The notes under the pieces are model-generated. The model was not told where the DNA came from, did no database searches, and was given only the letters and a program-made list of their open reading frames with translations. This document shows positions 8,264-35,603 of a stretch of DNA of 64,000 bases, one piece after another (the first letter of the stretch is position 1; every line of letters starts with the position of its first letter). Both the position numbers and the translations under genes were made by a program. The DNA is from Actinomycetota bacterium (GTDB lineage Bacteria > Actinomycetota > Thermoleophilia > RBG-16-64-13): NCBI GenBank assembly GCA_012514635.1, contig JAAYZX010000007.1, forward strand, positions 23,735 to 87,734, written 5' to 3'.

Positions 8264-8267
8264 GGTC

Positions 8268-15147: not shown

Positions 15148-16686
15148 ATGGCGCTGCGTGATCAGCTGGAACTGGGTCCTCGGGAAGTGATTTGTCTCGT
15201 GGGCGGGGGAGGCAAGAGCACATTCATGGAGGCTCTTGCCCGAGACTATGAAAGAAGCCACGCCGGCGTACTCATCACTACTACCACGAAAATCTTCCCA
15301 CCTTTGGCGAACAGACGTGGTGAGGCGCAGCAAGAAGAGGAGGACTGGGCGGGCGTGCAGGGCCGCCCAAACGCGCAAAGCTCGACGAATGCGGAGGCTT
15401 CGATCGGAGCGGAGACTTCGGTGAGTGTGGAGTGTTGGCCGGGCTTGCGTCCTCTCGTGCTGGGGGAGAGCGTAGCTGCGCTGCGGAGGGCCCTGGGAGA
15501 GGGAAGTGATGGGTCCACAACTTCGGTCTCCACTGTTGGGGACACGTGGGAACCTTCTCCGGTGGTGGGCACCGCAGTGCTCTCCTCAGGCAAACTAGAC
15601 GGCGTGCCGGTGGAATGGGTGCCCAAACTGCGCGACCTGCCGGGTGTGGAGGCGGTCCTGATCGAGGCGGATGGAGCGGCTCGGCTTCCGCTCAAGGCTC
15701 CGGCGTCGTACGAACCCGTTATTCCTTCTTGCGCAACGCTGGTGATCGCGCTGTGTGGACTTGACGCTCAGTGGACGCCGCTCGATGACGAACACGTGCA
15801 CCGTGCGGCCCTTCTGGCAGAGCTTCTGGGCCTACCTGCTGGAGTATCTGTGCCGCCGGAAGCGTTGTTGCCGGCGTTGATCTTGGGGTATCAGAACGCG
15901 GTCCCAGAGCATGCCAGACTGGTCGCCTTCTTCAACAAAGCGGACGCTCATCCGCCCGACCAGGTGCTGGTAGAGTTGGCACGTTGTGCGCCGGTGGATG
16001 TCTGGATGGGCGCCGCGCATCCGGACACCGGGCCTTTGTTTGAGTGTGTCCGGCATATCCCGCGGCGGCCTGTGGCCGTCGTGCTGGCGGCGGGCCTCAG
16101 CCGGCGCATGAGAGGTCGCGCCAAGGTTACGTTGGAGCTGGATGGAGTCAGCTTGGTAGGCCTGGCGGTACGTGCGGCTCTGGACGGAGGAGCACAGCCT
16201 CCGGTACAGGTGGTGGCCGGGCAGGAATATGACGCCATTCGGGAAGCACTGGAGCGTGACGTTCCCATGGGCCGTCATGGTTGCGACCGCTGGAGGATTA
16301 TCCGTAACCATCAGCCTGAACGGGGTATCGGTAGCTCGTTGGCCCTGGCGGCGAAGCAGGCTCGAGGTCGCGATTTGCTGGTGTTGCTGGCAGACCAACC
16401 TTTCGTGCGCGGTACAACGGTGAAGCGGCTGTTGGATGCTTGGGAGCGGGAAACCACAGCGGCGGCTGCAGTGCTGGAGGATTTGGCGGGAGTTTGGGGA
16501 CCGCCCGTGGTGATAAACCGCTCTCTACTACCGCAGGTCCTTGCCCTCACCGGCGATGAAGGAGCGCGTACGGTGCTTGAGGAATTCGACGCGCGTCTGG
16601 TGCGGGTACCGGCACAGGGGGCGGAGCGGCACGACGTGGATTCTGACAAAGACTTAGGCCACGCGGAGAGATTGAGTCGGCTTTAA
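15148..16686 (+). CDS. Fusion protein with an N-terminal YqeC-family (selenium-dependent hydroxylase accessory) domain and a C-terminal MobA-like NTP-transferase domain (MocA/YgfJ-like)
   Basis: N-terminus VICLVGGGGKSTFM is a P-loop-like motif typical of YqeC (TIGR03172). C-terminal 200 aa VAVVLAAGLSRRM...LLVLLADQPFV is the MobA/MocA nucleotidyltransferase signature. GGAAGGTGG RBS before the ATG at 15148. Confidence 0.55.
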   Translation: MALRDQLELGPREVICLVGGGGKSTFMEALARDYERSHAGVLITTTTKIFPPLANRRGEAQQEEEDWAGVQGRPNAQSSTNAEASIGAETSVSVECWPGLRPLVLGESVAALRRALGEGSDGSTTSVSTVGDTWEPSPVVGTAVLSSGKLDGVPVEWVPKLRDLPGVEAVLIEADGAARLPLKAPASYEPVIPSCATLVIALCGLDAQWTPLDDEHVHRAALLAELLGLPAGVSVPPEALLPALILGYQNAVPEHARLVAFFNKADAHPPDQVLVELARCAPVDVWMGAAHPDTGPLFECVRHIPRRPVAVVLAAGLSRRMRGRAKVTLELDGVSLVGLAVRAALDGGAQPPVQVVAGQEYDAIREALERDVPMGRHGCDRWRIIRNHQPERGIGSSLALAAKQARGRDLLVLLADQPFVRGTTVKRLLDAWERETTAAAAVLEDLAGVWGPPVVINRSLLPQVLALTGDEGARTVLEEFDARLVRVPAQGAERHDVDSDKDLGHAERLSRL

Positions 16687-16814
16687 CGGTTGGCGGTTGA
16701 GTCGCCTCTGGGTGTTGGCGTAGAGAGTGCGGCTACTGTGCCACCCTTTTCAGAGCATGTGTTCATCTGTATCATGGCACCCCATAAAATGCGGGGTTCT
16801 CGTAGGAGCGGCCG

Positions 16815-17225
16815 GTGAGCGTTCGCCAATTTTCACTGTTTGTGGAGAACAAGGCGGGGCGGATAGCCCAGATTGCCGGTGTGCTCGCTGCGAGGAAGAT
16901 TAACATCTTTGGATTCTGCCTGGCCGATACCGGTGATTACGGCATCGTGAGGCTGGTGGTCAGCAAGGCTGATGAGGCGGCTGAGGCTTTGCGGGGGGAA
17001 GGATTCACCGTCAAAGAAAACAAGGTCCTCTGTGTTAGACTACCCAACGAGCCCGGCGCTCTGGCCACACTGGGTGCCATAGTGACCGGGTCGGGTAGCA
17101 ACATAGATTATCTCTACTGGGGGGCCCGCGAGTCGGTCATATTCATGACGGATGATATCGAGGGCCTGGAACGTACGCTTACGGACAAGGGGCTACCATG
17201 CTTAGCGGATTCCGATATTGACTGA
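16815..17225 (+). CDS. ACT-domain protein (tandem ACT)
   Basis: FSLFVENKAGRIAQIAGVLAARKINI ACT fold. AGGAG RBS before the GTG at 16815. Commonly precedes Liv-type transporter/PaaK clusters in anaerobes. Confidence 0.7.
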   Translation: MSVRQFSLFVENKAGRIAQIAGVLAARKINIFGFCLADTGDYGIVRLVVSKADEAAEALRGEGFTVKENKVLCVRLPNEPGALATLGAIVTGSGSNIDYLYWGARESVIFMTDDIEGLERTLTDKGLPCLADSDID

Positions 17226-17295
17226 GCTGGAAAGGCCCAACTGTTCCGTGTAGCCGTGCCGGTTTTGCCGGCGTGTTCGTATCCAGGAGAGTGTC

Positions 17296-18522
17296 ATGCG
17301 TAAGTCGCGTAAGGCGGTTCTTACCGCTACATCTATAGCCGTTCTCGCAGTACTTCTAGCCGTATTCCTTGCGGCCTGCGGCGCCACTACCACAACTTCG
17401 GATGCCGGTTCCGCCACTGAGACCGATCAGAGCTTGGAACCCAGTGGTGATCCCATTGTTATCGGCGCCGTGGTATCCACCACCGGCCCCAATGCTCCCC
17501 TGGGGGAGCCTGAGCGCAACACCCTCGAGCTCATGGAAGATAAGATCAATGCTGAGGGCGGTGTGCTCGGTCGGCCTTTGAAGATCGTCATCCTTGATGA
17601 TCAGAGCAATGCCAAAGAGGCGGTGACCGCCACTCAGCGCCTGATCAACCAAGAGAAAGTGGTGGCTCTCATTGGAGCCAGCGGTTCGGCTACCACGTTG
17701 GCCATGAAACCCATAGCGGCACAGGCCGGAATTCCGCAGATAGCTATGGCTGCGGGCAATACTATTACGGACGAGCCGCCCCTGGATTGGGTCTGGCGCG
17801 TTGCTCCCAAGGACGATCTGGCAGTGGAACGGGCCTGCAAGTACATCGCCGAGGACCTCGGACTGAAGAAGATCGCCGTGCTGTACGACGAGAATGCCTT
17901 CGGCTCTTCGGGGATGGCTCAGATAGACGAGGTCAAAGATGTCTATGGTCTTGAGGTGGTGGCTAGGGAGTCCTACAAGACCGACGAAACCGATCTCACT
18001 GCGCAGCTGACCAAACTGCGTGGGTCAAACCCGGAAGCTCTTGTGGTGTGGGGCACCAACCCTGGGCCGGCCGTAGCAGCCAAGAATCTGAAGCAACTCG
18101 GTTGGCCGCTGCCCTATGTGGGTAGTCACGGTATCGCCAACTTCAAGTTTATCGAACTGGCCGGCGATGCGGCAGAGGGTGTGGTTTTCCCCAGCACCAA
18201 GATCCTTTTCCCGCAGTCCATCACAGACGAGGGACAGAAGCAGGTTATCGATACCTTCATCTCCGATTACACGGAGCGCTTCGGCGAGGCCCCCAACCAC
18301 TTCGCCAGTCACGGATGGGATGCCATCTCGTTACTGGTGAAGGCCATCGAGGACGCACAGGACACCAAGCCGGATGCCATTGCGGCTGCACTCAATGCCA
18401 TAAGCGGCTTTGCGGGAGCAGATGGAATCTTCAACTATTCGCCCACCAACCACGATGGCCTGGCCGTGGATGATCTCATCATGGTTGAGATCGAGGACGC
18501 CTCGTGGGTTCTGGCGCAGTAG
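17296..18522 (+). CDS. ABC transporter substrate-binding lipoprotein, branched-chain/aromatic amino acid (LivK/Leu-Ile-Val-binding) family
   Basis: Lipobox LAAC, then a Thr/Ser-rich linker. Periplasmic-binding-protein type I fold motifs. Followed by permease and ATPase genes. Confidence 0.85.
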   Translation: MRKSRKAVLTATSIAVLAVLLAVFLAACGATTTTSDAGSATETDQSLEPSGDPIVIGAVVSTTGPNAPLGEPERNTLELMEDKINAEGGVLGRPLKIVILDDQSNAKEAVTATQRLINQEKVVALIGASGSATTLAMKPIAAQAGIPQIAMAAGNTITDEPPLDWVWRVAPKDDLAVERACKYIAEDLGLKKIAVLYDENAFGSSGMAQIDEVKDVYGLEVVARESYKTDETDLTAQLTKLRGSNPEALVVWGTNPGPAVAAKNLKQLGWPLPYVGSHGIANFKFIELAGDAAEGVVFPSTKILFPQSITDEGQKQVIDTFISDYTERFGEAPNHFASHGWDAISLLVKAIEDAQDTKPDAIAAALNAISGFAGADGIFNYSPTNHDGLAVDDLIMVEIEDASWVLAQ

Positions 18523-18550
18523 GAGGTAGTTGTAGCGCTGTAGGAACTCG

Positions 18551-18631
18551 GATTGAGGCGGAGGCGGGCCGGACGGCCCGCCTCCGCCTCAATCCCCACC
18601 CCCGGCGGCCGCAGGCCGCCGGGGGTGGGGG
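18551..18631 (+). promoter_or_regulatory. Two tandem GC-rich perfect hairpins (20-bp and 16-bp stems) between the binding-protein gene and the first permease gene
   Basis: GATTGAGGCGGAGGCGGGCC-GGAC-GGCCCGCCTCCGCCTCAATC is immediately followed by CCCCACCCCCGGCGGC-CGCAG-GCCGCCGGGGGTGGGG. No U-tract. Confidence 0.55.
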
Positions 18632-18649
18632 TACCAGGAACTTTGCAGC

Positions 18650-19528
18650 GTGACGGGCCAACAGTTTCTTCAGTACATCTTCAGTGGCATCACCAACGGG
18701 AGCATCTATGCGCTGACGGCGTTGGGCTTCACGCTGGTCTACAATGCTACTGGAATCATCAACTTCGCCCAGGGTGAATTGGTCATGCTGGGCGGCTTGA
18801 GTGCTATTGGGCTTTATAGGGCGGGGCTCCCTCTACCGCTGGCCTTCGTCGGTGCCCTTATCATCGTGCTGATCGTAGCCGTCATGTTCGAGCAGCTTGC
18901 CATCCGCCCTCTTATGGCCAAAGGTGTGCTCGCCCAGGTCATTGCCACGGTGGGCGCCTCACTGGCTCTGCGTACGGCGGCCATGATGATCTGGGGAAGA
19001 GAGGCACTTCCTCTCCCTCCTTTTTCGGGAGACACTCCTATTCGCGTGTTGGGCGCCAGCCTCACTCCACAGACCCTATGGGTGGTTGGCACAACCATCG
19101 TCATCGTGTTGGCGTTGCAGTTCTTCTACAAGCGCACACTCACCGGAAAAGCGGTGCGCGCGTGTGCCGTCAACCCGTTGGCCGCAAGGTTGATGGGAGT
19201 ATCGTACGCCAGTGTGGTGCTGCTCAGTTTTGCGGTCAGCGGCGTTATCTCGGCGGCCGGCGGCGCAATGGTTGCACCCATCAGCTTCATGAGTTATTCG
19301 TCGGGGGCGTTGCTTGGTCTGAAGGGATTCGCTGCCGCCACATTAGGAGGGTTGGGTAACCCGCTGGCGGCCGTCTTTGGTGGGCTGACTCTCGGGATCC
19401 TGGAGGGGCTGGCTGTGGGGCTGGTTTCGTCAGGTTACAAAGACGCCATCGCTTTTGTGATTCTTCTGCTGGTCTTGTTCGTGCGTCCGCAGGGGCTTTT
19501 CGGGGGTCGGGTGGTGGAGCGAGAATGA
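18650..19528 (+). CDS. ABC transporter permease (LivH family)
   Basis: Polytopic membrane protein of the branched-chain amino acid permease family. GTG start. Confidence 0.85.
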   Translation: MTGQQFLQYIFSGITNGSIYALTALGFTLVYNATGIINFAQGELVMLGGLSAIGLYRAGLPLPLAFVGALIIVLIVAVMFEQLAIRPLMAKGVLAQVIATVGASLALRTAAMMIWGREALPLPPFSGDTPIRVLGASLTPQTLWVVGTTIVIVLALQFFYKRTLTGKAVRACAVNPLAARLMGVSYASVVLLSFAVSGVISAAGGAMVAPISFMSYSSGALLGLKGFAAATLGGLGNPLAAVFGGLTLGILEGLAVGLVSSGYKDAIAFVILLLVLFVRPQGLFGGRVVERE

Positions 19529-20502
19529 GCACGCCCGTGGGTTTCTGGAATCGTAACTGGGGTTTCATCACGCTGGCGGTGGTGGCGTTGGCCATGCCAC
19601 TCTTGGTCGCGGACGCGTATCTCCTTAGCATTCTGGCCTTCATGGCCACCCGCTTCATGGTGGTCATCGGTCTGAGTCTCTTGTTGGGCCAGGCCGGTCA
19701 GATATCGTTGGGGCACGCAGCGTTTGTTGCCATCGGAGCCTACGGTTCGGCTCTGTTGGTTACCCGCCTGAGCATGAATCCGTGGTTGGCCATGGTTGTT
19801 GCTGCCGTGTTGGCGGCCGGCGTGGCCGGTGTCATAGGCATCCCAACCCTGAAGCTCAAGGGGCACTATCTGGCGATGGCCACTCTGGGCTTCGGAGAGA
19901 TTGTGTTCATCCTGCTTGTGCAGTTGAAGGGACTCACTCGTGGCACCGACGGTATCACGGGGATTCCCCCGTTGACATTGGGCTCTTTGGATTTCAGTCA
20001 ACCCCGTCTCTATCACGTATTGGTCTGGTTGGTGGCTTTGATCGTCTTCCGTTTGGCACTGAATTTGTCGGAGTCCAGGGTGGGACGATCTCTCAAAGCC
20101 CTGCGTCGTTCGGAGCTGGCTGCGGAGTCGCTGGGGGTGAATGCGTCCTGGCGCAAACTGCAGGTCTTCATGATTTCGGCTGTGTTCGCTAGTCTGGCCG
20201 GCAGTTTTGATGCTCACTACGTTCAGTTCATCAGCCCCGACTCATACGGCATAACCTTCTCCGTGATCTTGGTGTGCTCAGTTGTGATTGGAGGGTTTCG
20301 CAGCGTGTGGGGAGCGCTTTGGGGCACGCTGGCCACGGTCATTCTGCCGGAGGTCATCAAACGGATACACGAGGACGCCGTCAATCTGGTCTTCGGGATC
20401 TTACTCATCCTCATCGTGGTGCTGTTGCCCGTGAAGAGTGGCCCTCTGGCGCGGGTGGCGCACGATGTGCGTTGTCTGTTCCATCGGGAAGAGAGGGGCT
20501 GA
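19525..20502 (+). CDS. ABC transporter permease (LivM family)
   Basis: ATGA start/stop overlap with the preceding permease. Polytopic membrane protein. Confidence 0.85.
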   Translation: MSTPVGFWNRNWGFITLAVVALAMPLLVADAYLLSILAFMATRFMVVIGLSLLLGQAGQISLGHAAFVAIGAYGSALLVTRLSMNPWLAMVVAAVLAAGVAGVIGIPTLKLKGHYLAMATLGFGEIVFILLVQLKGLTRGTDGITGIPPLTLGSLDFSQPRLYHVLVWLVALIVFRLALNLSESRVGRSLKALRRSELAAESLGVNASWRKLQVFMISAVFASLAGSFDAHYVQFISPDSYGITFSVILVCSVVIGGFRSVWGALWGTLATVILPEVIKRIHEDAVNLVFGILLILIVVLLPVKSGPLARVAHDVRCLFHREERG

Positions 20503-20503
20503 G

Positions 20504-21268
20504 ATGCCCCTCATGCGTTTAGATGGTGTTTCGAAGCGGTTCGGGGGTCTGGAGGCGCTGCGTGAGGTCAGTTTTGCACTTCACGTAGGACAGATCATGG
20601 CTTTGATCGGTCCCAACGGCGCCGGCAAAACCACCCTCTTCAATTGTGTGGCCGGAGCCGATCGCCCGAGTGCCGGTCAGGTGTTCTTTCGTGGCGAGGA
20701 TGTGACGGGACGTCCCGCGCATGCTATGTGCCGCGCAGGTTTGGCCCGGACGTTCCAGCACAGCCGTCTCTTTGATGACTTGACTGTGCTGGAGAATGTC
20801 ATCGTGGGGCGGCATTGCCGGACCTATGCAGGTTTGGCGGCGGCCTTCCTGCGGTTACCGCGGCACGGGCGCGAAGAGCGGGAATCGCGGGAGCAGGCCA
20901 TGCACGCCCTCACGCGCGTAGGGTTGGCCGACCGGGCGCAGGATGAAGCAGGGTCGCTGCCCCTGGGTGAACGCCATCTCTTGGAGATAGCACGTGGGTT
21001 GGCCACCGAGCCGGTCCTTCTGTTGCTCGATGAGCCGGCGGCGGGTCTTAACGACGAGGAGACCGCAAACCTGGGTCACTGCGTGCGGCGCATCCGCGAC
21101 GATGGTGTCACCATACTGCTGGTAGAGCACGACATGACCTTCGTGATGGATATATCAGACCAGGTGGTGGTGCTGGACTACGGGCGTAAGATTGCCGATG
21201 GTCCGCCGCTCATGATCCAAGCGGATCCTGAAGTGATCCGCGCATACTTGGGCGAAGATCTAGAATGA
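20504..21268 (+). CDS. ABC transporter ATP-binding protein (LivG family)
   Basis: Walker A GPNGAGKTT, signature LPLGERHLLEIARG, Walker B LLLDEP. AGAGGGG RBS. The ATG at 20504 follows the livM stop. Confidence 0.85.
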   Translation: MPLMRLDGVSKRFGGLEALREVSFALHVGQIMALIGPNGAGKTTLFNCVAGADRPSAGQVFFRGEDVTGRPAHAMCRAGLARTFQHSRLFDDLTVLENVIVGRHCRTYAGLAAAFLRLPRHGREERESREQAMHALTRVGLADRAQDEAGSLPLGERHLLEIARGLATEPVLLLLDEPAAGLNDEETANLGHCVRRIRDDGVTILLVEHDMTFVMDISDQVVVLDYGRKIADGPPLMIQADPEVIRAYLGEDLE

Positions 21269-22077: not shown

Positions 22078-22080
22078 GTT

Positions 22081-23385
22081 ATGAACGAGATCTGGAACCC
22101 GGAATACGAAACCATGACACGCAAAGATTTGCGCACGCTGCAGGAAAAGCGTTTGCAGATGACGCTGCGTTGGGCGCACTCTTCTGTGCCTTTCTATCGA
22201 CAGCGGTGGGAAGAAAGCGGCATCAACGTGCGAGACATCAAGACTCTGGATGACGTGACACGTCTGCCGTTCACTACCAAAGCCGACTTCAGACGAGCCT
22301 ACCCTTACGGCATGTTCGCGGTACCGCTGGAAAGGGTCATTCGCATTCATACGTCATCGGGTAGTCCTTCTTCTCCCACCGTGGTGGGGTTCACACGCGG
22401 GGATCTCAATACCTGGGCCGAGCTGTGCGCCCGCGCCGGCACGGCCGGCGGGGCGCGCTCGCACGATGTGGTACAGATCACTTTCGGTTACGGTCTGCAG
22501 ACGGGGGCGTTGGGATGGCACGCCGGATTGGAGCGCCTAGGGGCCACCGTTATCCCCACGTCCACTGGTGCAACCAAGCGCCAGTTGATGATCATGCGCG
22601 ATTATCACACCAGCGTTCTGGCCGGATCGCCTTTCTATGGACTTCATCTGTGCTACGTGGCTGACGAACTCGGGATCCGCCCACCGGACCTTAATCTGCG
22701 CATAGCTCTTCTCGGGGGAGAGCCTTGGAGCGAAGCTATCCGCCGCGAGATACAAGAGCGCCTGGGAGTCCAGGCACGTGATACGTATGGAGTGTCGGAG
22801 GTGCTGGGACCCGGTTTGTCCTTTGAGTGCCCGGCGGAAGATGGGCTACACGTCAACGAGGATCACGTGTTGGTGGAAGTGGTGGATCCAAAGAGCGGTG
22901 TGCTGCTTGCGGAGGGAGAGGAAGGTGAGCTGGTGTTCACATCACTCACCAAGGAAGCCGTGCCGGTTATCCGTTACCGCACGGGTGATCTGGCTGCAAT
23001 TACCACGCAACGCTGTGCGTGCGGTCGTACACTGGTGCGCCATACCCGTGTACAACGTCGCTGTGACGACATGCTCAAAGTGAGGGGTGTCAACGTGTTC
23101 CCGGCACAGGTGGAGAACGTCCTGGCCGCTGCGATGGGAGTGCCACCGCGATTCCAGATCCTTCTTGAAACCGAAGCCGGTTTGGATCAGATGGAGGTAC
23201 TTGTGCCCATGGACCCGGCGCTCTTCACAGACGATATACGGGATTTTGTAGACCTGCGACGGGAGCTGGAAGAGCGGCTGGCCGATGAGTTGGCCGTTAG
23301 GGTCCGCGTGAGATTCGTGGAGCCCACCGTTTTTACCACAGTCGACGAACTGCCGGCACGGGTGGTCGATAAACGACGCAGATAA
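22081..23385 (+). CDS. paaK: Phenylacetate-CoA ligase family (PaaK-like aryl-acetate/aryl-acid:CoA ligase)
   Basis: N-terminal LQEKRLQ...VPFYRQ, AMP-binding TSSGSPSSPT, about 434 aa, typical of PaaK. Confidence 0.8.
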   Translation: MNEIWNPEYETMTRKDLRTLQEKRLQMTLRWAHSSVPFYRQRWEESGINVRDIKTLDDVTRLPFTTKADFRRAYPYGMFAVPLERVIRIHTSSGSPSSPTVVGFTRGDLNTWAELCARAGTAGGARSHDVVQITFGYGLQTGALGWHAGLERLGATVIPTSTGATKRQLMIMRDYHTSVLAGSPFYGLHLCYVADELGIRPPDLNLRIALLGGEPWSEAIRREIQERLGVQARDTYGVSEVLGPGLSFECPAEDGLHVNEDHVLVEVVDPKSGVLLAEGEEGELVFTSLTKEAVPVIRYRTGDLAAITTQRCACGRTLVRHTRVQRRCDDMLKVRGVNVFPAQVENVLAAAMGVPPRFQILLETEAGLDQMEVLVPMDPALFTDDIRDFVDLRRELEERLADELAVRVRVRFVEPTVFTTVDELPARVVDKRRR

Positions 23386-26545: not shown

Positions 26546-27304
26546 ATGTCGAAAGCGATTATCGATTTGAGTGGCAAGGTGGCCATCGTCACCGGGGGCA
26601 CTCGTGGAATCGGGGCGGAGATGGTGCGCACCCTCGCTCTGCAGGGGGCGGATATAGCGCTCAACTATCGCAAGAGCGTCGATGAGGCGGCCAAATTGGT
26701 GGAGGAACTGCAGGCCATGGGCCGGAAGGCCATCGCGGTACAGGCCGACGTCTCCAGCATGGCCGACGCCGAGAAGATGGTGGCCAAGGTTGTCGAGGAG
26801 TTGGGCGGGGTCCACATCTTAGTGTGCAACGCCGGCATGAACTGGGACGGCGTTATATGGAAGATGACGGAAGACCAGTTCGACCGCGTAATTGACGTCG
26901 ACCTGAAGGGTACGTGGAACTACCTGCGTGCCTGCGCTCCGTACTTCAGAGAGCAGAACTACGGTCGCTTTATCAGCGTAACCTCTATCAACGGCATACG
27001 AGGCAAGTTCGGTCAGACCAACTACTCCGCCGCCAAAGCCGGCGCCATTGGTCTCACAAAGGCTGCAGCCAAGGAGCTGGGTAAGTACGGCGTTACGTGC
27101 AACTCGGTGGCTCCCGGTTTCATCCTGACGGAGATGGGCGAGAGTATGCCGGACGAGTTTAAACAGGCCGCTGTAGACGAGTCGGCTGTGAAACGCGCGG
27201 GAGTACCCGACGATATAGCCTGGACTGTGGCCTTCCTGGCGTCTGAACTGGGTCGTCACATTACGGGTGAAGTCATCAAGGTGGATGGCGGCCAGTATAT
27301 CTAG
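26546..27304 (+). CDS. Short-chain dehydrogenase/reductase (FabG-like)
   Basis: TGGTRGIG cofactor motif, NAG, catalytic YSAAK. 252 aa. Confidence 0.85.
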   Translation: MSKAIIDLSGKVAIVTGGTRGIGAEMVRTLALQGADIALNYRKSVDEAAKLVEELQAMGRKAIAVQADVSSMADAEKMVAKVVEELGGVHILVCNAGMNWDGVIWKMTEDQFDRVIDVDLKGTWNYLRACAPYFREQNYGRFISVTSINGIRGKFGQTNYSAAKAGAIGLTKAAAKELGKYGVTCNSVAPGFILTEMGESMPDEFKQAAVDESAVKRAGVPDDIAWTVAFLASELGRHITGEVIKVDGGQYI

Positions 27305-27472: not shown

Positions 27473-28609
27473 ATGAGTTTGGATTGGTTGCCACGCGACA
27501 ATGAGATCAAAGACCATCGGCTGTTCAAGGGCGAGGAATATTGGGGCACGGAAGCTCCCTGCACCATGTTCGAAAAGAAGCCTTTGGTGGACCCGGACGG
27601 CAACGAGATTCCCGGTCTCTACACGGCTTGGATCACTCTCAACAACCCTGCACAGTACAACTCGTACACCACTGAGATGGTTAAAGGTGTAATCGCCGGT
27701 TTCTGGAACGCCTCCACCGCCCGCGATGTGGTTGCGGTGGTTTTCACCGGAGCGGGCAAAGCCGCCTTCTGCACCGGCGGCAACACCGTAGAGTATTCCG
27801 AGTACTACTCGCGTAGGCCCAAGGAATACCAAGATTACATGGAACTGTTCAACGGGATGGTGGACTCCATTCTGGCCTGCAAAAAACCCGTCATCTGCCG
27901 GGTCAACGGCATGCGGATTGCCGGTGGGCAGGAAATCGGTATGGCTGCCGACCTTGCAGTAGCTGCAGATACTGCCGTGTTCGGTCAGGCCGGCCCGCGC
28001 CACGGCTCCGCCGCCGTTGGTGGTGCTACCGACTTCCTCTGCGAGTTTCTCTCCATCGAAGACGCCATTTGGAGCGGCTTCATGTGCGAGATGTGGTCGG
28101 CCTACAAGATGCGGGTCAAGAACCTCATCACCAAAGCAGTCCCGGTCCTCAAGAAGGACGGCGAATTCATTCGCAATCCGCTGGTCATCACCGACAGCTA
28201 TGTCAAAGACGGCGAGATCGTCTACGGTGAGATGAAGGCCGGCGCTGAGGCGAAGGCTGCGCGCGAACTCATGGCTTCCTGCGAATACGATTACTCGGCT
28301 CTGGATGCCGAAGTAAATAGGATCATCTGGCAGATCGCCAACCTATTCGAGGGCAACGTACAGATGTCGCTCGACTCCATGCGCATGAAGAAGCGCTTTT
28401 TCTGGGATCAGTCCAAGGTGCTTATGCGCCAGTGGCTGGGACAGAACATGATGCTCGACGCCTTCCTGGGCTTCCACGCGTTCAGCACGCGCAAGCTCAC
28501 CGGCAAGGACACCATCGACTTTATCAAGTACCGTCAGTTGGTGGCCGAAGGCAGGCTCATGGAACTCGATGCGCTCGAGGAAATCATGCCGAAGCCACTG
28601 CAGAAGTAA
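27473..28609 (+). CDS. Large crotonase-superfamily (enoyl-CoA hydratase/isomerase) protein. Possibly a BamA/Oah-like ring-hydrolysing 6-oxocyclohex-1-ene-1-carbonyl-CoA hydrolase.
   Basis: Crotonase core VVFTGAGKAAFCTGGN ... VNGMRIAGGQEIGMAAD. The 378-aa length with a long C-terminal extension matches Oah/BamA-type members rather than 260-aa hydratases. The BamA assignment is inference. Confidence 0.7.
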   Translation: MSLDWLPRDNEIKDHRLFKGEEYWGTEAPCTMFEKKPLVDPDGNEIPGLYTAWITLNNPAQYNSYTTEMVKGVIAGFWNASTARDVVAVVFTGAGKAAFCTGGNTVEYSEYYSRRPKEYQDYMELFNGMVDSILACKKPVICRVNGMRIAGGQEIGMAADLAVAADTAVFGQAGPRHGSAAVGGATDFLCEFLSIEDAIWSGFMCEMWSAYKMRVKNLITKAVPVLKKDGEFIRNPLVITDSYVKDGEIVYGEMKAGAEAKAARELMASCEYDYSALDAEVNRIIWQIANLFEGNVQMSLDSMRMKKRFFWDQSKVLMRQWLGQNMMLDAFLGFHAFSTRKLTGKDTIDFIKYRQLVAEGRLMELDALEEIMPKPLQK

Positions 28610-28635
28610 GCACGGCGGCATATTAAGAAGGGCTG

Positions 28636-28678
28636 GTCGGGGCCGGGACGTCGTTTGGCGTCTCGGCCCCGACTTTAA
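28636..28678 (+). terminator. Putative terminator after the crotonase gene
   Basis: GTCGGGGCCGGGACG-N8-CGTCTCGGCCCCGAC (14/15 bp) followed by TTTAAT. Confidence 0.45.
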
Positions 28679-29147
28679 TGGTGGTATCTTGCTCTGGAAC
28701 GACCATAGCGGAGGCTGCATACGTGTGGTGGCGACGTCTTTGTAGGGAGCGGCCCCTATTTCGTACGCATCGTGCGCCGTTCCAGGCCCTGGAATGGGCA
28801 CCGGACGAGTTGGTAGCCCACGAGGGAACACTTTTTAAAGTAACCCGCTGGGAGGAGCTCGCCGTTACGCATCTGTCGCGCGGTGGATCAGTGGGAGAAT
28901 GGGAAGTCTGGGGCAGACCGGCGACTGATGAAGAAGTAGCGGCAACTGCTTCAGCCGCCGTTGAACGCATTCTGTCTGACACGGATTCCTCAGAAACCGG
29001 CTGATTGCCCGGTTGGCCGAGAAACCCGTACCGTAGAGGGCCTTCGTTTGCTACAGTGACTGCGTGTCGGTCATGGATTGGTGGGAGTGCGGCCGCACGC
29101 ATGAAGACCATGACTCGTTGATCCGAACGAGGAAAGGAATGTAGTGC

Positions 29148-29978
29148 ATGTTCAAGGTTATTAGCAACGAAGAGATCGCTCCGCAACTGCATAGGATGGT
29201 TATTGAAGCCCCGCGTATTGCAAAAGCGCGGAAGCCCGGCCAGTTCGCCATTGTGCGTTTGCGGCCGGGGGCCGAGCGCATCCCCCTCACTATTGCCGAC
29301 GACGATCCCGTGGCAGGTACCATCACCCTCATCATCCAGGCTGTTGGTTACAGTACTCAAGAGATCGTCGCTACCAAAGCGGGTGAGTATATTCAGAATA
29401 TCGCCGGCCCTCTGGGCATGCCTACGGAGATAGAGAACTGGGGCAAGGTGATTTGTGTGGGCGGCGGCGCAGGTGCTGCGGTGCTCTACCCACTCGCCAA
29501 AGCATTGGCGCAGGCCGGCAACGAGCTGATCACCATTATTGGTGGTCGCAGTGCGGAATACGTCATTCTGTTTGATGAGCTGGCTGCGTTCTCCAAGGAG
29601 GCCATTGCCACCACCGAAGATGGATCCATGGGTGAAAAGGGGTTTGTCACGGGCCCACTGAAGAGAATCCTGGATGAGTCCACTACCAAGCCGCATGCAG
29701 TGTATGCTGTGGGTCCCGTTCCCATGATGCGCGCGGTGTCAGAATTAACGCGTCCTTACGGTGTTAAGACCATCGTCTCCCTCAACCCCATCATGATCGA
29801 CGGTACCGGTATGTGCGGTGGCTGTCGGGTGACGGTGGGCGGAGAGGTGAAATTCGCCTGTGTCGATGGGCCGGAATTCGATGGCCACCAGGTCGATTAC
29901 GACGAACTCTTCGCACGCCAAAACGCGTACCAGGAACTGGACGAGCACGGCTGCAGGCTCGACTCGGTCAAGGTCTGA
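29148..29978 (+). CDS. nfnA: Ferredoxin-NADP+ reductase-like FAD/[2Fe-2S] subunit (NfnA / sulfide dehydrogenase gamma / PyrK-like)
   Basis: PyrK-like fold with C-terminal CGGCRV...C cluster motif. GAGGAAAGG RBS. Paired with a GltD-like gene. Confidence 0.75.
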   Translation: MFKVISNEEIAPQLHRMVIEAPRIAKARKPGQFAIVRLRPGAERIPLTIADDDPVAGTITLIIQAVGYSTQEIVATKAGEYIQNIAGPLGMPTEIENWGKVICVGGGAGAAVLYPLAKALAQAGNELITIIGGRSAEYVILFDELAAFSKEAIATTEDGSMGEKGFVTGPLKRILDESTTKPHAVYAVGPVPMMRAVSELTRPYGVKTIVSLNPIMIDGTGMCGGCRVTVGGEVKFACVDGPEFDGHQVDYDELFARQNAYQELDEHGCRLDSVKV

Positions 29979-29996
29979 GGAAAGGGACTATCCACG

Positions 29997-31418
29997 ATGA
30001 CTGAGCTCACTATAAAAGAAAGAATGGCCATCCAACGCACCACCATGCCGGAGCAAGATCCGGTGGAACGGGCACAGAACTTCAAGGAAGTCAATCAAGG
30101 TCTACCTCTCGAGTGGGCCATCCAAGAAGCCAAACGTTGCCTGGGTTGCAAGAAGCGGCCCTGTGTGGACGGATGCCCGGTGAACGTGCACATCCCAGAA
30201 TTCCTGGACAAGTTGGCGGAGGGGGATGTTGCGGGTGCGGCGACCATCCTTCGTGTCGACAATGCTCTGCCTGCCACCACCGGTCGTGTGTGTCCACAGG
30301 AAATGCAGTGCGAGGGCAAGTGTGTACGTGGGAAAAAGGGTCAGCCGGTTGCCATTGGGTGGCTGGAGCGTTTTGTGGCCGACTGGGCTGCGGAGAACAT
30401 GGAGCCGGACAAGGCTCCCGCAGAGCAGACCGGGTTTCGTGTGGCCGTCATCGGCTCCGGTCCCGGTGGGCTGACGGCGGCTGGTGAGCTGGCGCGCGCC
30501 GGTCACGGCGTGCACGTCTTCGAGGCTTTGCACGACACGGGCGGCGTGTTGCGCTACGGCATCCCCGAATTTCGTCTTCCTAAGAGGATTGTAGATCAGG
30601 AAGTGGAGAACCTAAGGTCTCTGGGTGTGGAGATTGAGTGCGACGTGATTGTGGGGCGCACCCTCACCTTGAGCGAGATACGCGACGATTTTGACGCGGT
30701 ATTCGTGGCCAATGGTGCCGGTCTGCCCATGTTCCTGAATGTGCCCGGCGAAAACCTTAAGGGTGTATATTCAGCCAACGAATACCTCACGCGAACCAAT
30801 CTGATGGGCGCATGGACGGGAGATGTGACCGGAACGCCCATTTTCCGTGGCAGGCGGGTAGTCGTGTTCGGCGGTGGCAATGTGGCCATGGACTCAGTGC
30901 GCACGGCCAAACGCTTGGGTGCCGAGCGGGCCATCATTGCGTATCGGCGCGGCAAGGAAGAGATGCCCGCTCGTGTAGAAGAAGTTCATCACGCTGAGGA
31001 AGAGGGCATAGAATTTCACCTGCTGGTGGCCCCACTCGAAATACTGGAAGATGATAAAGGCTGGGTGCGTGCGGTCAGACTCCAGAAGATGGAATTGGGT
31101 GAACCCGACGCTTCCGGACGCCGTCGTCCTGTAGCAGTACCGGGCAGCGAGTTTGAGCTCGAGTGCGATGCAGTGGTGGTGGCACTGGGTACGGTGGCCA
31201 ACCCTCTTTTGACGAACGCCGAGCCCGATCTCAAGCTTGACAAGTGGGGCAACATCATTGCAGATGAATCCCAGGCCACATCGCTCGACGGTGTGTTTGC
31301 CGGGGGCGATATCGTGCGGGGTGGCGCCACAGTTATCCTGGCCATGGGTGACGGCAAGTGTGCCGCTCAATCCATCGATGAGTACCTGAAGGGGAAGACC
31401 CCCAAGGCGGCGGCTTAG
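29997..31418 (+). CDS. nfnB: NADPH-dependent glutamate-synthase-small-chain-like subunit (NfnB / GltD family)
   Basis: N-terminal CxxC...CxxC...C Fe-S motifs, FAD/NAD Rossmann motifs VAVIGSGPGGLTAA and VVVFGGGNVAMD. 473 aa. Confidence 0.8.
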   Translation: MTELTIKERMAIQRTTMPEQDPVERAQNFKEVNQGLPLEWAIQEAKRCLGCKKRPCVDGCPVNVHIPEFLDKLAEGDVAGAATILRVDNALPATTGRVCPQEMQCEGKCVRGKKGQPVAIGWLERFVADWAAENMEPDKAPAEQTGFRVAVIGSGPGGLTAAGELARAGHGVHVFEALHDTGGVLRYGIPEFRLPKRIVDQEVENLRSLGVEIECDVIVGRTLTLSEIRDDFDAVFVANGAGLPMFLNVPGENLKGVYSANEYLTRTNLMGAWTGDVTGTPIFRGRRVVVFGGGNVAMDSVRTAKRLGAERAIIAYRRGKEEMPARVEEVHHAEEEGIEFHLLVAPLEILEDDKGWVRAVRLQKMELGEPDASGRRRPVAVPGSEFELECDAVVVALGTVANPLLTNAEPDLKLDKWGNIIADESQATSLDGVFAGGDIVRGGATVILAMGDGKCAAQSIDEYLKGKTPKAAA

Positions 31419-31439
31419 CACGAAGCGGTAACAAGCGGT

Positions 31440-31548
31440 CCCCCGGTCCGGTCCACCGGACCGGGGGAAATCGTGTGGCGGGCGCGGGTGCCTTGACGGC
31501 ACCCGCGCCCGCCGCCGTACTTCAGGTTGCGAAGACGCATCCGCAACC
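31440..31548. terminator. Cluster of three perfect hairpins between convergent nfnB and yjbQ (bidirectional terminator region)
   Basis: CCCCCGGTCCGG-TCCA-CCGGACCGGGGG; GGCGGGCGCGGGTGCC-TTGAC-GGCACCCGCGCCCGCC; GGTTGCG-N10-CGCAACC. Confidence 0.5.
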
Positions 31549-31557
31549 GCCAATCAC

Positions 31558-32022
31558 TTATTCTCCCATGACCTTGATTACCAGCCGCTTGTCGCGCCCG
31601 CCGTCGAACTCGCAGTAGAAAATTTGCTGCCAGGGTCCCAGGTCGAGTCGTCCGGCTGTGATCGGTACGATAACCTGGTGATGGACTAGGAGATTCTTCA
31701 GGTGACCATCACCGTTGTCTTCGCCGTTGGCGTGATGACGGTAATCTCCGGGATCAGGGAGTAGCGCGCGGGCCACCTCATTTGCGGGAGTCTTCCAGCT
31801 CGGCGGTGCGATCTTGTCCAACCATTCCAGTGCATCGACCAGGATGCCATCGGGGTCGTCGTCGTTCACCCACACGCCTGCGGTGATATGCATAGCTGAA
31901 ACCAGAACCATGCCTTCCTGTACGCCGGATTCCGTCACCGCCTGTTCGACATCGGTGGTAATACGCAAGAATTCTCTGCGCTTAGTTGTACGGAATACCT
32001 TGTATACAGTATGCGTCTTCAC
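31558..32022 (-). CDS. yjbQ: YjbQ/UPF0047 family protein (secondary thiamine-phosphate synthase-like)
   Basis: Full-length similarity to the YjbQ family (about 150 aa, motif [10 protein letters not shown]...HANGED). Confidence 0.75.
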
Positions 32023-32060
32023 GTGAATCTCCCTTCCTCAGTGGAGGCAAAGCGTTCCGG

Positions 32061-32945
32061 CTACTTAACCAGCGGCGTGATCAGGCGTCCCAGACCTTCA
32101 ACTTCCACCACAACCTCGTCGCCGGGCTTCAGCCACGGCCTAACACCATCTTTCATGCCCAGTATTACGCCCTCTGGAGTACCGGTGGAGATGATGTCGC
32201 CGGGCTCCAGGGTCATGTATCGGCTTGCATAGCTGATCAATTCCGCTACAGAGAAAACCATGTCCGCCGTGTTGGAGTTTTGGCGCGGATCACCGTTGAC
32301 CCAGCTGCGCACGCTGAGTTGTTGAGGATCATAGACATCGTCGGCGGTGACCAAGTAGGGTCCCAACGGCATGAAACCGTCCAGCGTCTTACCGATCAGC
32401 CACTGTCCGGAGAGAAACTGGAGGTCACGGCAACTGAGGTCATTCCCATTGCAGTAGCCCAGTACATAATCCAGTGCCGCCTCCTCCGTTACGTTTTTGG
32501 CTCTTCTTCCCATTACCACAACGAGTTCGGCCTCGTAATCGTAGCGGGTCATAGGGCCGGGCAGCGATACGGGTTCCCCCGAGCCGGCGAGACTGTTGTT
32601 GAATTTGGAGAAAAGCACGGGCTGTGCTGGGATATCGCTATTGGTCTCAGCCGCATGCCCTCGGTAGTTCAGCCCAATGCAGATGATCTTTCCGGGCGCC
32701 GGGATGCAGGGAGCCGGTTGCAGCTGGTGCTCGGCAACGATCGACTCAGGATGGTGGTGGGCCTGTTCGGCCACTATGCGCATATGTTCTATGGCGTCCT
32801 GCCCGGAGCGGAAGAAAGCCACTGGGTCGATTGCCGGTCCGCTCAGGCCTGCCGCTTGGCCTACGGTGGCCACGTCGACCACACCGTTTGCGGTTTTGAT
32901 ACCCAATGCTGGGCCGGCATCCGTACGATAGGTCATCAGGATCAC
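32061..32945 (-). CDS. Fumarylacetoacetate hydrolase (FAH) family protein
   Basis: FAH-fold metal-binding region (EAELVVV, GTPEGV) and about 294-aa length typical of 2-keto-4-pentenoate hydratase/FAH-family enzymes. Confidence 0.85.
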   Translation of the reverse strand: MILMTYRTDAGPALGIKTANGVVDVATVGQAAGLSGPAIDPVAFFRSGQDAIEHMRIVAEQAHHHPESIVAEHQLQPAPCIPAPGKIICIGLNYRGHAAETNSDIPAQPVLFSKFNNSLAGSGEPVSLPGPMTRYDYEAELVVVMGRRAKNVTEEAALDYVLGYCNGNDLSCRDLQFLSGQWLIGKTLDGFMPLGPYLVTADDVYDPQQLSVRSWVNGDPRQNSNTADMVFSVAELISYASRYMTLEPGDIISTGTPEGVILGMKDGVRPWLKPGDEVVVEVEGLGRLITPLVK

Positions 32946-33050
32946 CAGGCTCCCTCCTCCACTATGTAAGTTGCGGGCAAAAGAGTTACTATTTGCTTAA
33001 AGAATTGGCATAAATATCGGAAAGAGTTATTATTTTAAGGTGATCGACAT

Positions 33051-33812
33051 ATGTCCACGAAGCATAGCAGTCCCATGATCGCCAACGGGATCAAGAACAA
33101 CGAAGAATCGTTGGCGGATGGACATCTCTCCTCGGCACCTACCGGGGCACGGGTGGAACTGCGTCTTTGGTCTCCTAGGGAGCTGGCACAACGTCTTGTC
33201 GCCTGGTTGGAGGAGAGCGGCGCAAAGCCCGGCGACCGCATAGGTGATCGTGCAGGATTGGCAGATCTGTGGGGTGTATCTGCCTCCACAATGCGTGAAG
33301 CGGTTCGTATTCTGGAGGCGGCGGGAATTCTGGAACAGAAGGTAGGGGCGGGAGGTGGGGTGTTCTTCCAACCGCGTGAAGCTGATGCCATTGCCGGTGT
33401 CCTGTTGTGGAGCGCAGCATTGGGTCGTATTGGTGACGCTGCGCTGGTGCGCGCGCTGGCCGAGATCGAGGGGCTGATTGCGGCGCATGCCGCCTTGCGG
33501 GCGGGGCCGGAAGATGTGCGGCGCTGTGAGCGGGCCGCCCGCAGTGATGATGCTTCGCAACGTGACTCTCTCTTTCACGAAGTTCTTACCGAGTGCGCGG
33601 GTAACGAAATGCTTGGGATCTTGAGAAGAGCGCTGGCGGAAGCGGTCGGCGGGCGGGCGGGCGAGGCACGGGCGGCCGGGCGGAGCGTCGGCGGCAATCT
33701 TGACCATGTAGCGTACAGTCACGCATACATAGTGGACGCGGTGCGTACCGGCGACGCTGCGGAAGCATCCCGCAGGGCGCGCAGGCACATTGAGGTGGTT
33801 CTGGAAACATAG
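33051..33812 (+). CDS. GntR-family (FadR/FCD subfamily) transcriptional regulator
   Basis: Winged HTH LADLWGVSASTMREAVRILEAAGIL, then an all-helical ligand-binding domain. Divergent from the FAH gene through an AT-rich promoter region. Start may be internal. Confidence 0.75.
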   Translation: MSTKHSSPMIANGIKNNEESLADGHLSSAPTGARVELRLWSPRELAQRLVAWLEESGAKPGDRIGDRAGLADLWGVSASTMREAVRILEAAGILEQKVGAGGGVFFQPREADAIAGVLLWSAALGRIGDAALVRALAEIEGLIAAHAALRAGPEDVRRCERAARSDDASQRDSLFHEVLTECAGNEMLGILRRALAEAVGGRAGEARAAGRSVGGNLDHVAYSHAYIVDAVRTGDAAEASRRARRHIEVVLET

Positions 33813-33822
33813 GAGGATCAGG

Positions 33823-34721
33823 ATGACGTCTCAAGAGTTGTACAAGAAGATGGCGGAGTTATCCACTGAAGGGAAGGCGTTTGTCCTGGCCACGGTCGTG
33901 GAGTCATTTGGGTCCACTCCTCGGAAGGCCGGCGCCAAGATGTTGGTGCTTGAGGATGGATCCACTATCGACACGGTAGGCGGAGGCAAGGTCGAGCAGC
34001 AGGTGGTGCTGGACGCGCTGGACGCTCTTCAACGCGGTGTGTCGCGGACTGTAAAATATGAGCTGCGCACATCGGGTGAGCATGCGCTGGCATGGAATGT
34101 GGCGGGGAGACCACTGTATTCCTGGAGGTGAACAAACCGGCGCTGACCATTGTGGTCGCCGGTGCGGGGCACATAGCCCAGAAGCTCACACCTATGGCCA
34201 AGCTGCTGGATTTTCGGGTGGTAGTGGTGGACACGCGGCCCGAGTTTGCAAACACCGACAATCTTCCGGATGCCGATGAGGTTATCTGTGGTCACCCGGG
34301 CGAACTGCCGGACCTTGTCTCCTTGGATCACAACTCGTATGTGGTGATCGTCACCCACGGCCACATCCACGATAAGGATGCGCTGAAAGCCGTGCTCTCT
34401 TCCGATGTTGCCTACGTGGGAATGATCGGCAGTCAGCATAAGGTACGTGTTGTGCTGGAACAACTGCTTGACGAGGGCGCCGATATGGAACGTCTCAGTC
34501 GGGTCTATTCACCTATTGGAATAGATCTGGGCGGTGGTGCTCCTGGAGAGATCGCCGTAAGTATCCTGTCGGAGATCGTCGCAATGCAGCATGGACGCCT
34601 TGACCGCTTCCGTGTACGTCGTAATCCGCTGGTGGAAACTGCAGTGTCGCTCAGCTCCGCTTCCGGCGCGACTATGGGTACGGATGCGGTGGGAGGTGGT
34701 CGATCGCAGTGTTGCTCTTAG
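33823..34721 (+). pseudogene. xdhC: XdhC/CoxI-family Mo-hydroxylase maturation factor, split by an apparent frameshift at about 34080-34091 (N-terminal XdhC_CoxI domain in one frame, C-terminal Rossmann XdhC_C domain in the -1 frame)
   Basis: Frame 1 gives ...GSTPRKAGAKMLV...KYELRTSGE then stops at 34131. Frame 3 opens at 34080 with ACAGMECGGETTVFLEV..., the conserved XdhC CGGE motif, and runs to 34721. No RBS precedes the internal ATG at 34092. GGAGGA RBS precedes the ATG at 33823. Confidence 0.55.
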
Positions 34722-34787
34722 GCCGTGGATGATCAGCAGGTGGCCTGGAGGGTCTTTTGTTCTCATCTATAGAAGAGGGCGGAGATT

Positions 34788-35603
34788 ATGACTGTGAAAA
34801 AACCGTTGGCTCTGGTGAAGGGGGCAGGCGATCTGGCCACGGGAGTCTCGTTACGTTTGCACCGGGCGGGTTTTTCGGTTGTGATGACTGAGATCGCTTC
34901 ACCTACGCCTGTTCGGCGCACGGTGGCGTTCGCGGAAGCCGTATACAACGGAAAAGTATTGGTCGAAGGTGTTGAGGCGGTTTTGGCCGGAAACGAAGAG
35001 GATGTGCTGGACATCCTGTCCGGCGGAAAGCTGCCCGTCTTGGTGGATCCAGAGGCCGCCTGTCGTGCGTGGCTGGATCCGGACCTGTTGGTCGACGCCA
35101 TTATCGCGAAGCGTAATCTGGGGACGTCGCCTGCCGATGCCCCAGCAGTGGTTGCCCTGGGGCCGGGGTTTGTCGCCGGCCGAGATTGCCATGCAGTGAT
35201 TGAGACTATGCGGGGCCACACGCTGGGTCGCGTTATATGGGAAGGTGAGGCTATTCCCAACACCGGCGTGCCCGGTGAAGTTGGAGGCAAGGCTGCCGAA
35301 CGAGTTCTTCGTGCCCCCGGGGCGGGAATATTCAAAGCGCATGCAGAGATTGGAGATATGGTGACGAGCGGGCAGGTCGTCGGCTACGTCGACGACCTGC
35401 CGCTGACATCGTCCATCGATGGTGTCCTGCGCGGCCTTCTTCGCTCGGGCCTGGAGGTCTCTCCGGGATTCAAGACCGGGGACGTGGATCCGCGGGCGGC
35501 GCGAGAGCACTGTTTCACGGTATCGGACAAGGCCTTAGCTATTGGCGGTGGAGTCTTGGAAGCGGCGTGTGCCCTGCTGGGAGGTGTGAGGTTTCAGCGA
35601 TAG
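34788..35603 (+). CDS. XdhC-related Rossmann-fold protein, candidate YqeB-family selenium-dependent molybdenum hydroxylase system protein
   Basis: 271 aa. Dinucleotide-binding-like N-terminus LVKGAGDLATGVSLRL. Immediately downstream of xdhC. The YqeB (TIGR03309-like) assignment is from recall of family description and context, not an alignment. Confidence 0.4.
   Translation: MTVKKPLALVKGAGDLATGVSLRLHRAGFSVVMTEIASPTPVRRTVAFAEAVYNGKVLVEGVEAVLAGNEEDVLDILSGGKLPVLVDPEAACRAWLDPDLLVDAIIAKRNLGTSPADAPAVVALGPGFVAGRDCHAVIETMRGHTLGRVIWEGEAIPNTGVPGEVGGKAAERVLRAPGAGIFKAHAEIGDMVTSGQVVGYVDDLPLTSSIDGVLRGLLRSGLEVSPGFKTGDVDPRAAREHCFTVSDKALAIGGGVLEAACALLGGVRFQR

Follow-up and report, generated by a model that had tools for sequence, protein, structure and literature searches.

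Marker genes of the selenium-dependent molybdenum hydroxylase trait at two conserved, dispersed loci of an uncultured Actinomycetota lineage

Two loci lying 17 kb apart on one contig of an uncultured member of the Actinomycetota together carry the four modules of the yqeB-yqeC-mocA set in a rejoined form, and they probably serve the maturation of a molybdenum hydroxylase encoded outside the 64,000-nucleotide stretch of DNA analysed here (the window). The first locus holds a fusion gene that joins a YqeC domain to one of the MobA/MocA-like nucleotidyltransferase type, and the second an XdhC-family gene followed by yqeB (Table 1). The genes are real and conserved, but their recognition is a routine annotation of known marker genes and leaves current understanding unchanged. 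The NCBI names of NLE73216.1, which matches the fusion protein exactly (P0204), and of NLE73237.1 ('EF2563 family'), both from an Actinomycetota MAG, already agree with the two family calls. The insertion of selenium into molybdenum hydroxylases is biochemically unsolved, and each well-characterised genomic case gives slight comparative information.

Table 1. Features of the two accessory loci, in window coordinates
Feature	Position	Strand	Details
YqeC + MobA/MocA-like nucleotidyltransferase fusion	15148..16686	+	512 aa; = NCBI NLE73216.1
YqeC domain of fusion	15148..16032	+	TIGR03172, PF19842, motif columns of alignment A3
MocA-like NTP-transferase domain	16060..16683	+	LAAGLSRRM and LLADQP motifs
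GntR/FCD-family regulator	33051..33812	+	PF00392 and PF07729
XdhC-family gene (XdhC_CoxI + XdhC Rossmann domain)	33823..34721	+	PF02625, PF13478
YqeB core protein	34788..35603	+	271 aa; = NCBI NLE73237.1; TIGR03309

Domain architecture of the YqeC-MocA-like fusion

The N-terminal domain of the fusion protein is a member of the YqeC family, as originally predicted, with 119.7 bits against TIGR03172 (cutoff 73.05) and 117.3 bits against PF19842 (cutoff 27.6). It displays each of the motifs GGGGK[ST], TTTT, EADG...LPLKAP and VHR, which form invariant or near-invariant columns in a 37-sequence alignment (A3). The Walker-A-like GGGGKS occupies aa 19-24 (nt 15202-15219), the EADG of the hhhhEADG motif aa 173-176 and the NKAD motif aa 263-266. 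Between these lies a lineage-specific, low-confidence insertion (about aa 56-135), and the AF2 model of the fusion (pLDDT 89.7, pTM 0.90) falls below a pLDDT of 50 at aa 69-88 and 119-130. Fold searches gave no classification for the YqeC domain. An alternative GTG start at 15139 would lengthen the protein to 515 aa.

For the C-terminal domain, a MobA-like cytidylyltransferase had been predicted. The broader family assignment stands (PF12804, 100.6 bits), but the specific one to YgfJ does not: TIGR03310 (MocA/YgfJ) is the top NCBIfam model, yet its score of 95.3 bits lies below the equivalog cutoff of 186.45. Fold and motif similarity connect the domain to the MocA-related Rv0371c and to MobA, and on its sequence it should be filed as MobA/MocA-like rather than as proven MocA. 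The combination of YqeC with NTP_transf_3 recurs in at least 65 of the 73 homologous clusters, and such a fusion would tie YqeC functionally to the synthesis of the cytosine-dinucleotide cofactor.

XdhC, its frameshift, and YqeB

The XdhC-family gene contains both of its Pfam domains in order (PF02625, 86.2 bits; PF13478, 145.1 bits), the former in the ORF at 33790-34131 (ATG at 33823) and the latter in a different frame, in the ORF at 34092-34721. The predicted frameshift is borne out, as one G is missing from the run at 34089-34090: the window reads GCGCTGGCATGG at the break, and the metagenomic contig L002 reads GCGCTGGGCATGG. Apart from this one G, the two are 100% identical over 2,288 nt, and L002 encodes an intact XdhC of 299 aa. 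The frameshift recurs in contig L001, and the gene is also intact in L087 and L088. The lesion is a single-base indel at the level of the strain or of the assembly. Programmed frameshifting was rejected, given that the G-CUG-GCA at the break is no slippery heptamer and that the identical strain has the extra G. The intact protein of L002 scores below the equivalog cutoff of TIGR02964, the model for XdhC proper, the xanthine dehydrogenase accessory protein (135.1 vs 161.6), and below that of NF045664, the AOR maturation factor (259.2 vs 350).

The stop codon of the regulator gene lies 10 nt upstream of xdhC, a position kept in relatives, and the order GntR-XdhC-YqeB is also seen in L087 and L088. 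Further upstream, a long plus-strand ORF at 31986-32969 was discarded as spurious, the real gene being one for an FAA-hydrolase family protein on the minus strand.

The downstream gene product, previously noted as YqeB-like, belongs to the YqeB family, scoring 368.4 bits against TIGR03309 (cutoff 220; E = 1.7e-110) over model positions 2-253 of 256. It couples a Rossmann-like N-terminal domain to a biotinyl/lipoyl-like barrel-sandwich domain and has an invariant Cys242 (nt 35511-35513). Its earlier description as an XdhC-related Rossmann protein has to be dropped: hhalign assigns the relationship a probability of 0.4%, and the Rossmann-like N-terminal fold is the sole common feature.

Conservation of the dispersed layout

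The original prediction had suggested that the accessory genes might be dispersed or partly decaying, and of these two options the first holds. The synteny of the fusion locus is kept in L005 and L095, that of the second locus in L087 and L088, and Clostridioides difficile offers a precedent for dispersal (PMC11448449). Both loci lie inside a stretch flanked by aspartate carbamoyltransferase-like, amidohydrolase, carA, carB and pyrD genes. The separation of the genes into two loci is conserved and under selection in this uncultured Actinomycetota lineage.

Under the second option, the genes would be left over from a lost hydroxylase system, with the xdhC frameshift as the first visible lesion. 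Such decay would fit the recurrence of the frameshift in the window and L001, the 64 kb without a hydroxylase, and an adenine deaminase gene two genes upstream that is fragmented in the relative L005. However, the otherwise identical L002 lacks the indel and, like L087 and L088, retains an intact XdhC. Moreover, the dN/dS values of 0.087 for XdhC (vs L087), 0.094 for YqeB and 0.12 for the fusion are similar to those of adjacent housekeeping genes, and all catalytic-looking invariant residues are kept. A missing hydroxylase neighbor also has parallels, with 9 of 35 fully flanked YqeB loci of other genomes showing none within 10 kb. We hence regard decay as very improbable.

More generally, among 80 genomes surveyed for the neighborhood of YqeB, 46 encode YqeC and 22 encode XdhC no more than 1 kb away, and a hydroxylase large subunit is found within 10 kb at 26 of the 35 fully flanked loci. 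In the two closest genomes, those of the Thermoleophilia L007 and L067, the hydroxylases, YqeC, MocA and YqeB are encoded in one cluster, which in L067 also holds XdhC.

The target enzyme and the role of selenium

The statement that no hydroxylase subunit is encoded nearby holds for the whole window: profiles of the large, [2Fe-2S] and FAD subunits, each derived from 30-50 sequences, match none of its six-frame ORFs of at least 50 aa. Pfam and NCBIfam scans assign unrelated functions to the ORFs between and around both loci. Neither selD nor a Molybdenum-cofactor riboswitch nor a tRNA-Sec was found in the window. A search with the large subunit of L097 yielded candidate hydroxylase clusters, none with an accession of the NLE7xxxx series, and P0238 comes from unrelated samples.

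From the family identities and the correspondence of the modules, we infer a target hydroxylase encoded outside the window, the use of selenium, and the following series of steps. The MocA-like domain would transfer CMP onto Mo-molybdopterin to form the cytosine-dinucleotide cofactor of xanthine-oxidase-family hydroxylases, and the YqeC domain could be a nucleotide-dependent partner to it, in a role loosely like that of MobB beside MobA. XdhC would then hold the cofactor and deliver it to the apo-enzyme, and YqeB would install or protect the terminal chalcogen ligand. If the trait is selenium-dependent, this ligand would be selenium from selenophosphate made by SelD.

The predicted selenocysteine peroxiredoxin is confirmed, in that its gene in the window has an in-frame TGA at the catalytic Cys position that is conserved in a relative at about 68% nucleotide identity. 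This implies the presence of the Sec machinery and hence of SelD, so that the proposed use of selenium both as Sec and as a ligand of the molybdenum cofactor is plausible. Furthermore, the joint presence of YqeB with YqeC is the published signature of the selenium-cofactor trait (PMC5029168), and the two are encoded here on the same contig. TIGR03309 is confined to genomes that have selD, and its members are frequently fused to XdhC (PMC2276186). In C. difficile, a yqeB deletion resembles selD mutants on xanthine and urate, and a yqeC deletion has no phenotype (PMC11448449). For neither YqeB nor YqeC has a biochemical role ever been demonstrated (PMC11448449).

These same markers also admit a selenium-independent function, in which the fusion, and possibly XdhC and YqeB, would make and insert an ordinary sulfurated cytosine-dinucleotide cofactor lacking labile selenium, for a 4-hydroxybenzoyl-CoA-reductase-like or other hydroxylase. 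Any one of these markers by itself may function in processes unrelated to selenium (PMC5029168), and the silent yqeC deletion of C. difficile points the same way (PMC11448449). So do fusion homologs in L006, L096 and L097 (42-46% identity), which have neither YqeB nor XdhC within 10 kb and are divergently oriented from an adjoining three-subunit hydroxylase. The large subunits of these hydroxylases score 1105-1119 bits against TIGR03194, the model for the alpha subunit of 4-hydroxybenzoyl-CoA reductase, above its cutoff of 994.55. The window itself encodes Oah, a hydrolase that is a marker of the benzoyl-CoA pathway (TIGR03200, 519 bits; cutoff 464). Against this stand the presence of YqeB, from a family reported only in selD-positive genomes (PMC2276186), its pairing with YqeC in the published signature, and the availability of SelD to a Sec-decoding organism. 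We favor the maturation scheme set out above, in which the use of selenium is plausible, and consider the selenium-independent alternative rather unlikely.

Since these distant relatives of the fusion adjoin a hydroxylase in the absence of YqeB, the fusion may have a role in cytosine-dinucleotide cofactor synthesis in general, in line with suggestions in the literature that selenium specificity is lower for YqeC than for YqeB. A bolder proposal, which we view as quite unlikely, is that the YqeC-MocA fusion clade is a dedicated maturation partner of a widespread 4-hydroxybenzoyl-CoA-reductase-alpha-like hydroxylase that is a labile-selenium enzyme in the window lineage. If true, selenium-dependent molybdenum hydroxylases would reach beyond purine and nicotinate catabolism into anaerobic aromatic-ring metabolism. 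The window lineage also has YqeB, XdhC, the implied Sec machinery and Oah.

Comparison with known systems

The pairing of YqeC with a MocA-like domain recalls the synthesis of molybdopterin guanine dinucleotide, where a MobA-fold nucleotidyltransferase works with MobB, a small P-loop protein. The parallel would be functional only: hhalign aligns the P-loop region of YqeC with E. coli MobB over 31 columns at a probability of 55%, there is no significant homology outside the P-loop, and MobB lacks the EADG and NKAD motifs. The likeness is best treated as a working analogy rather than as family membership.

The EF2563 cluster of Enterococcus faecalis and the Haloarcula pNG7241 system (Haft and Self 2008, PMC2276186) have TIGR03309 in common with the window, as well as the frequent association or fusion of this family with an XdhC-like domain. 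In the orphan-selD genomes of that study, selD lies a few genes from TIGR03309, whereas the window has no selD. C. difficile (Johnstone and Self 2024, PMC11448449) resembles the window in that its yqeB and yqeC are dispersed and in that its yqeB lies among pyrimidine-metabolism genes, comparable to the pyrimidine-biosynthesis-flanked stretch of the window loci. It differs in that its yqeC stands as a gene of its own, close to xdhA1-xdhB1 and mocA, and in that genetic phenotypes exist for it, the window lineage being uncultured.

The closest match in content is yqeB-yqeC-mocA of E. coli K-12 (b2875-b2877), in the xdh/ygf purine-catabolism region, with which the window has all four modules in common. 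The intact form of the window XdhC aligns with aa 2-252 of E. coli YqeB (32% identity, E = 7e-46) and the window YqeB with aa 270-527, its C-terminal half (51% identity), so that the two window genes are collinear with the two halves of the E. coli protein. The fusion is 28% identical to E. coli YqeC (BLASTP, E = 8.5e-18) and 21% identical to MocA. In E. coli the modules all adjoin xdhD/ygfK/ssnA, whereas those of the window form loci in hydroxylase-free surroundings. YqeC and MocA are encoded by separate genes in E. coli and are fused in the window. Conversely, the XdhC-like and YqeB core regions form one 541-aa protein in E. coli and are encoded by separate genes in the window, a split that mirrors the E. 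coli fusion.

YqeC fusion and YqeB-XdhC loci

The two accessory loci lie in a window of ~60% G+C in which the + strand carries most genes. As originally predicted, the first codes for a fusion of a YqeC domain, which scores above the TIGR03172 cutoff, to a MobA-like nucleotidyltransferase domain matching PF12804. The narrower MocA/YgfJ assignment of the second domain falls short of its model's threshold: TIGR03310 is its top NCBIfam model but reaches only 95.3 bits, below the cutoff of 186.45. Of 73 homologous clusters, at least 65 share this YqeC+NTP_transf_3 architecture. Fold searches with YqeC returned no classification; going by its conserved GGGGK[ST], EADG and NKAD motifs, it is probably a P-loop NTPase. 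The YqeC domain also carries a lineage-specific, acidic, low-complexity insertion (window 15313-15552, aa ~56-135), which is missing from most homologues and is predicted to be disordered, pLDDT dropping under 50 at aa 69-88 and 119-130.

Features of the window and of related loci (window coordinates unless a locus is named)
Feature	Position	Strand	Evidence or remark
Selenocysteine-containing BCP/PrxQ-type peroxiredoxin	9518-9979	+	in-frame TGA 9647-9649
Adenine deaminase	11810-13492	+	TIGR01178 597 bits, cutoff 472
YqeC + MobA-like nucleotidyltransferase fusion, 512 aa	15148-16686	+	TIGR03172 119.7 bits, cutoff 73.05; PF19842 117 bits; PF12804 100.6 bits
Oah/BamA, 6-oxocyclohex-1-ene-1-carbonyl-CoA hydratase/hydrolase	27473-28609	+	TIGR03200 519 bits, cutoff 464
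NfnAB-like pair	29148-31418	+	gene 1, NF004862 390 bits; gene 2, TIGR01316 589 bits, cutoff 472
GntR/FCD regulator	33051-33812	+	stop 10 nt before xdhC
XdhC_CoxI domain ORF	33823-34131	+	directly upstream of yqeB
XdhC Rossmann domain ORF	34092-34721	+	overlaps 33823-34131, other frame
YqeB	34788-35603	+	TIGR03309 368.4 bits, cutoff 220
226-aa ORF, weak partial thymidylate-synthase similarity	36577-37257	+	PF00303 47.7 bits
TPP riboswitch	61583-61686	+	RF00059 76.3 bits, gathering score 54.3
Fusion homologue + three-subunit hydroxylase	L006 6098-11641; L096 2846-9428; L097 284-5992	divergent	

On its TIGR03309 score, the last gene of the second locus unambiguously specifies YqeB. Its earlier description as an XdhC-related protein is not borne out, as profile comparison of YqeB with XdhC gave no significant similarity. 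Across 36 homologues, Cys242 of YqeB is invariant; it may serve as a carrier residue. The XdhC beside it is, as anticipated, split by a frameshift, which had been taken as a possible sign of decay. In the metagenomic contig L002 (JGI 3300009773), 2,288 nt align to the window with zero mismatches and a single gap, namely one additional G in the run at 34089-34090, which yields an intact 299-aa XdhC. Two relatives with the order GntR-XdhC-YqeB also have intact versions (299 aa in L087, YqeB 86% identical; 303 aa in L088, YqeB 75% identical). The deletion recurs in L001, but this contig has a coverage of ~2.7x and may derive from related reads. The dN/dS values relative to L087 are 0.087 for the restored XdhC, 0.094 for YqeB and 0.11 for GntR, and that of the fusion relative to L005 is 0.12. 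Hence, the lesion either arose very recently as a variant of the strain or is an error of the assembly, and it does not count as evidence of decay. A 226-aa ORF downstream (TIGR03283 59.8 bits, below the cutoff of 174) overlaps a longer - strand ORF without recognisable function.

Gene neighborhoods and the missing hydroxylase

Searching the six-frame ORFs of the window with profiles of the Mo-hydroxylase large, [2Fe-2S] and FAD subunits gave no match, which, with the marker matches, confirms the observation of accessory genes without a hydroxylase. The genes separating the two loci are functionally unrelated, coding for an ACT protein, a branched-chain amino-acid ABC transporter, a PaaK-like ligase, a thioesterase, OtsBA, an SDR, Oah, the NfnAB-like pair, YjbQ and an FAA-hydrolase family protein. 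The NfnAB-like pair combines a PyrK-like FAD/NAD subunit with a GltA-type NADPH-dependent subunit, the latter also scoring weakly against the YgfK/AegA/YgfT models, and is kept beside the GntR-XdhC-YqeB locus in L087. Oah marks the anaerobic degradation of benzoyl-CoA through cleavage of its ring; it occurs here in an uncultured Actinomycetota MAG, near the SDR (26546-27304), the PaaK-like CoA ligase (22081-23385) and the thioesterase. Elsewhere, the TPP riboswitch precedes a solute-binding protein (61873-63012).

Of 80 YqeB loci surveyed in species-representative genomes, 46 have YqeC and 22 have XdhC no more than 1 kb from YqeB. In 35 of the loci, the flanks extend for at least 8 kb in each direction; 26 of these have a hydroxylase large subunit within 10 kb, and the other 9 have none. 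In the two closest genomes, Thermoleophilia L007 and L067 (70-72% identical), a single cluster combines hydroxylase operons with YqeC, MocA and YqeB; L067 has XdhC as well. In L005 and L095 (fusion 60% and 50% identical), the window order of carboxylesterase, adenine deaminase, membrane protein, fusion, ACT protein and liv genes is kept; the lineage to which the window belongs conserves the dispersed layout. The adenine deaminase is the second gene upstream of the fusion, in a neighborhood kept in L095 and, in fragments, in L005; a link to purine catabolism is possible but weak.

A new detail emerging from this analysis is that three distant fusion homologues (L006, 43%; L096, 46%; L097, 42%) each lie beside, and in divergent orientation to, a three-subunit hydroxylase. 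Their large subunits pass TIGR03194 (4-hydroxybenzoyl-CoA reductase alpha; 1105-1119 bits, cutoff 994.55), while the FAD and Fe-S subunits fall under the corresponding cutoffs and the FAD subunit is without the 4-HBCR beta signature. Neither YqeB nor XdhC lies within 10 kb of these loci, and the window itself codes for Oah. This points to a role of the fusion in making the cytosine-dinucleotide cofactor for 4-hydroxybenzoyl-CoA-reductase-alpha-like hydroxylases generally. Such a general role fits the lack of a phenotype upon yqeC deletion in C. difficile (PMC11448449).

Selenium and comparison with known systems

The predicted Sec-peroxiredoxin is upheld: its in-frame TGA occupies precisely the position of the peroxidatic Cys, a hairpin of 7 bp and a 4-nt loop begins 11 nt downstream, and both TGA and flanks are conserved in L005 (~68% nucleotide identity), in which gene callers had cut the gene short. 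Sec decoding needs SelD; hence, a selenium donor is very likely available in this organism, its use by a hydroxylase being putative. The original interpretation is partly supported: the signature of the selenium trait is present, but the proposed decay is not supported. NCBI nr already lists the fusion (NLE73216.1) and YqeB (NLE73237.1), both on a 137,627-bp contig of an Actinomycetota MAG, and the finding amounts to known, annotated marker genes whose dispersed arrangement is conserved.

There is a precedent for this layout in C. difficile, where yqeB and yqeC are likewise dispersed (PMC11448449). Pyrimidine-biosynthesis genes (PyrR-like PRTase, aspartate carbamoyltransferase-like, amidohydrolase, carA, carB and pyrD) flank the region at 3773-9473 and 45243-50515, recalling the pyrimidine-gene neighborhood of C. 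difficile yqeB (PMC11448449); the likeness is probably a coincidence. TIGR03309 proteins are often fused with XdhC-like domains (Haft and Self, PMC2276186). Residues 2-252 of E. coli K-12 YqeB match the restored XdhC (32% identity, E = 7e-46) and residues 270-527 the window YqeB (51%, E = 6e-87), while E. coli YqeC (28%, E = 8.5e-18) and, weakly, MocA (21%, E = 1e-3) match the fusion. Judged by these alignments, the window holds the four modules of E. coli yqeB-yqeC-mocA, joined differently.
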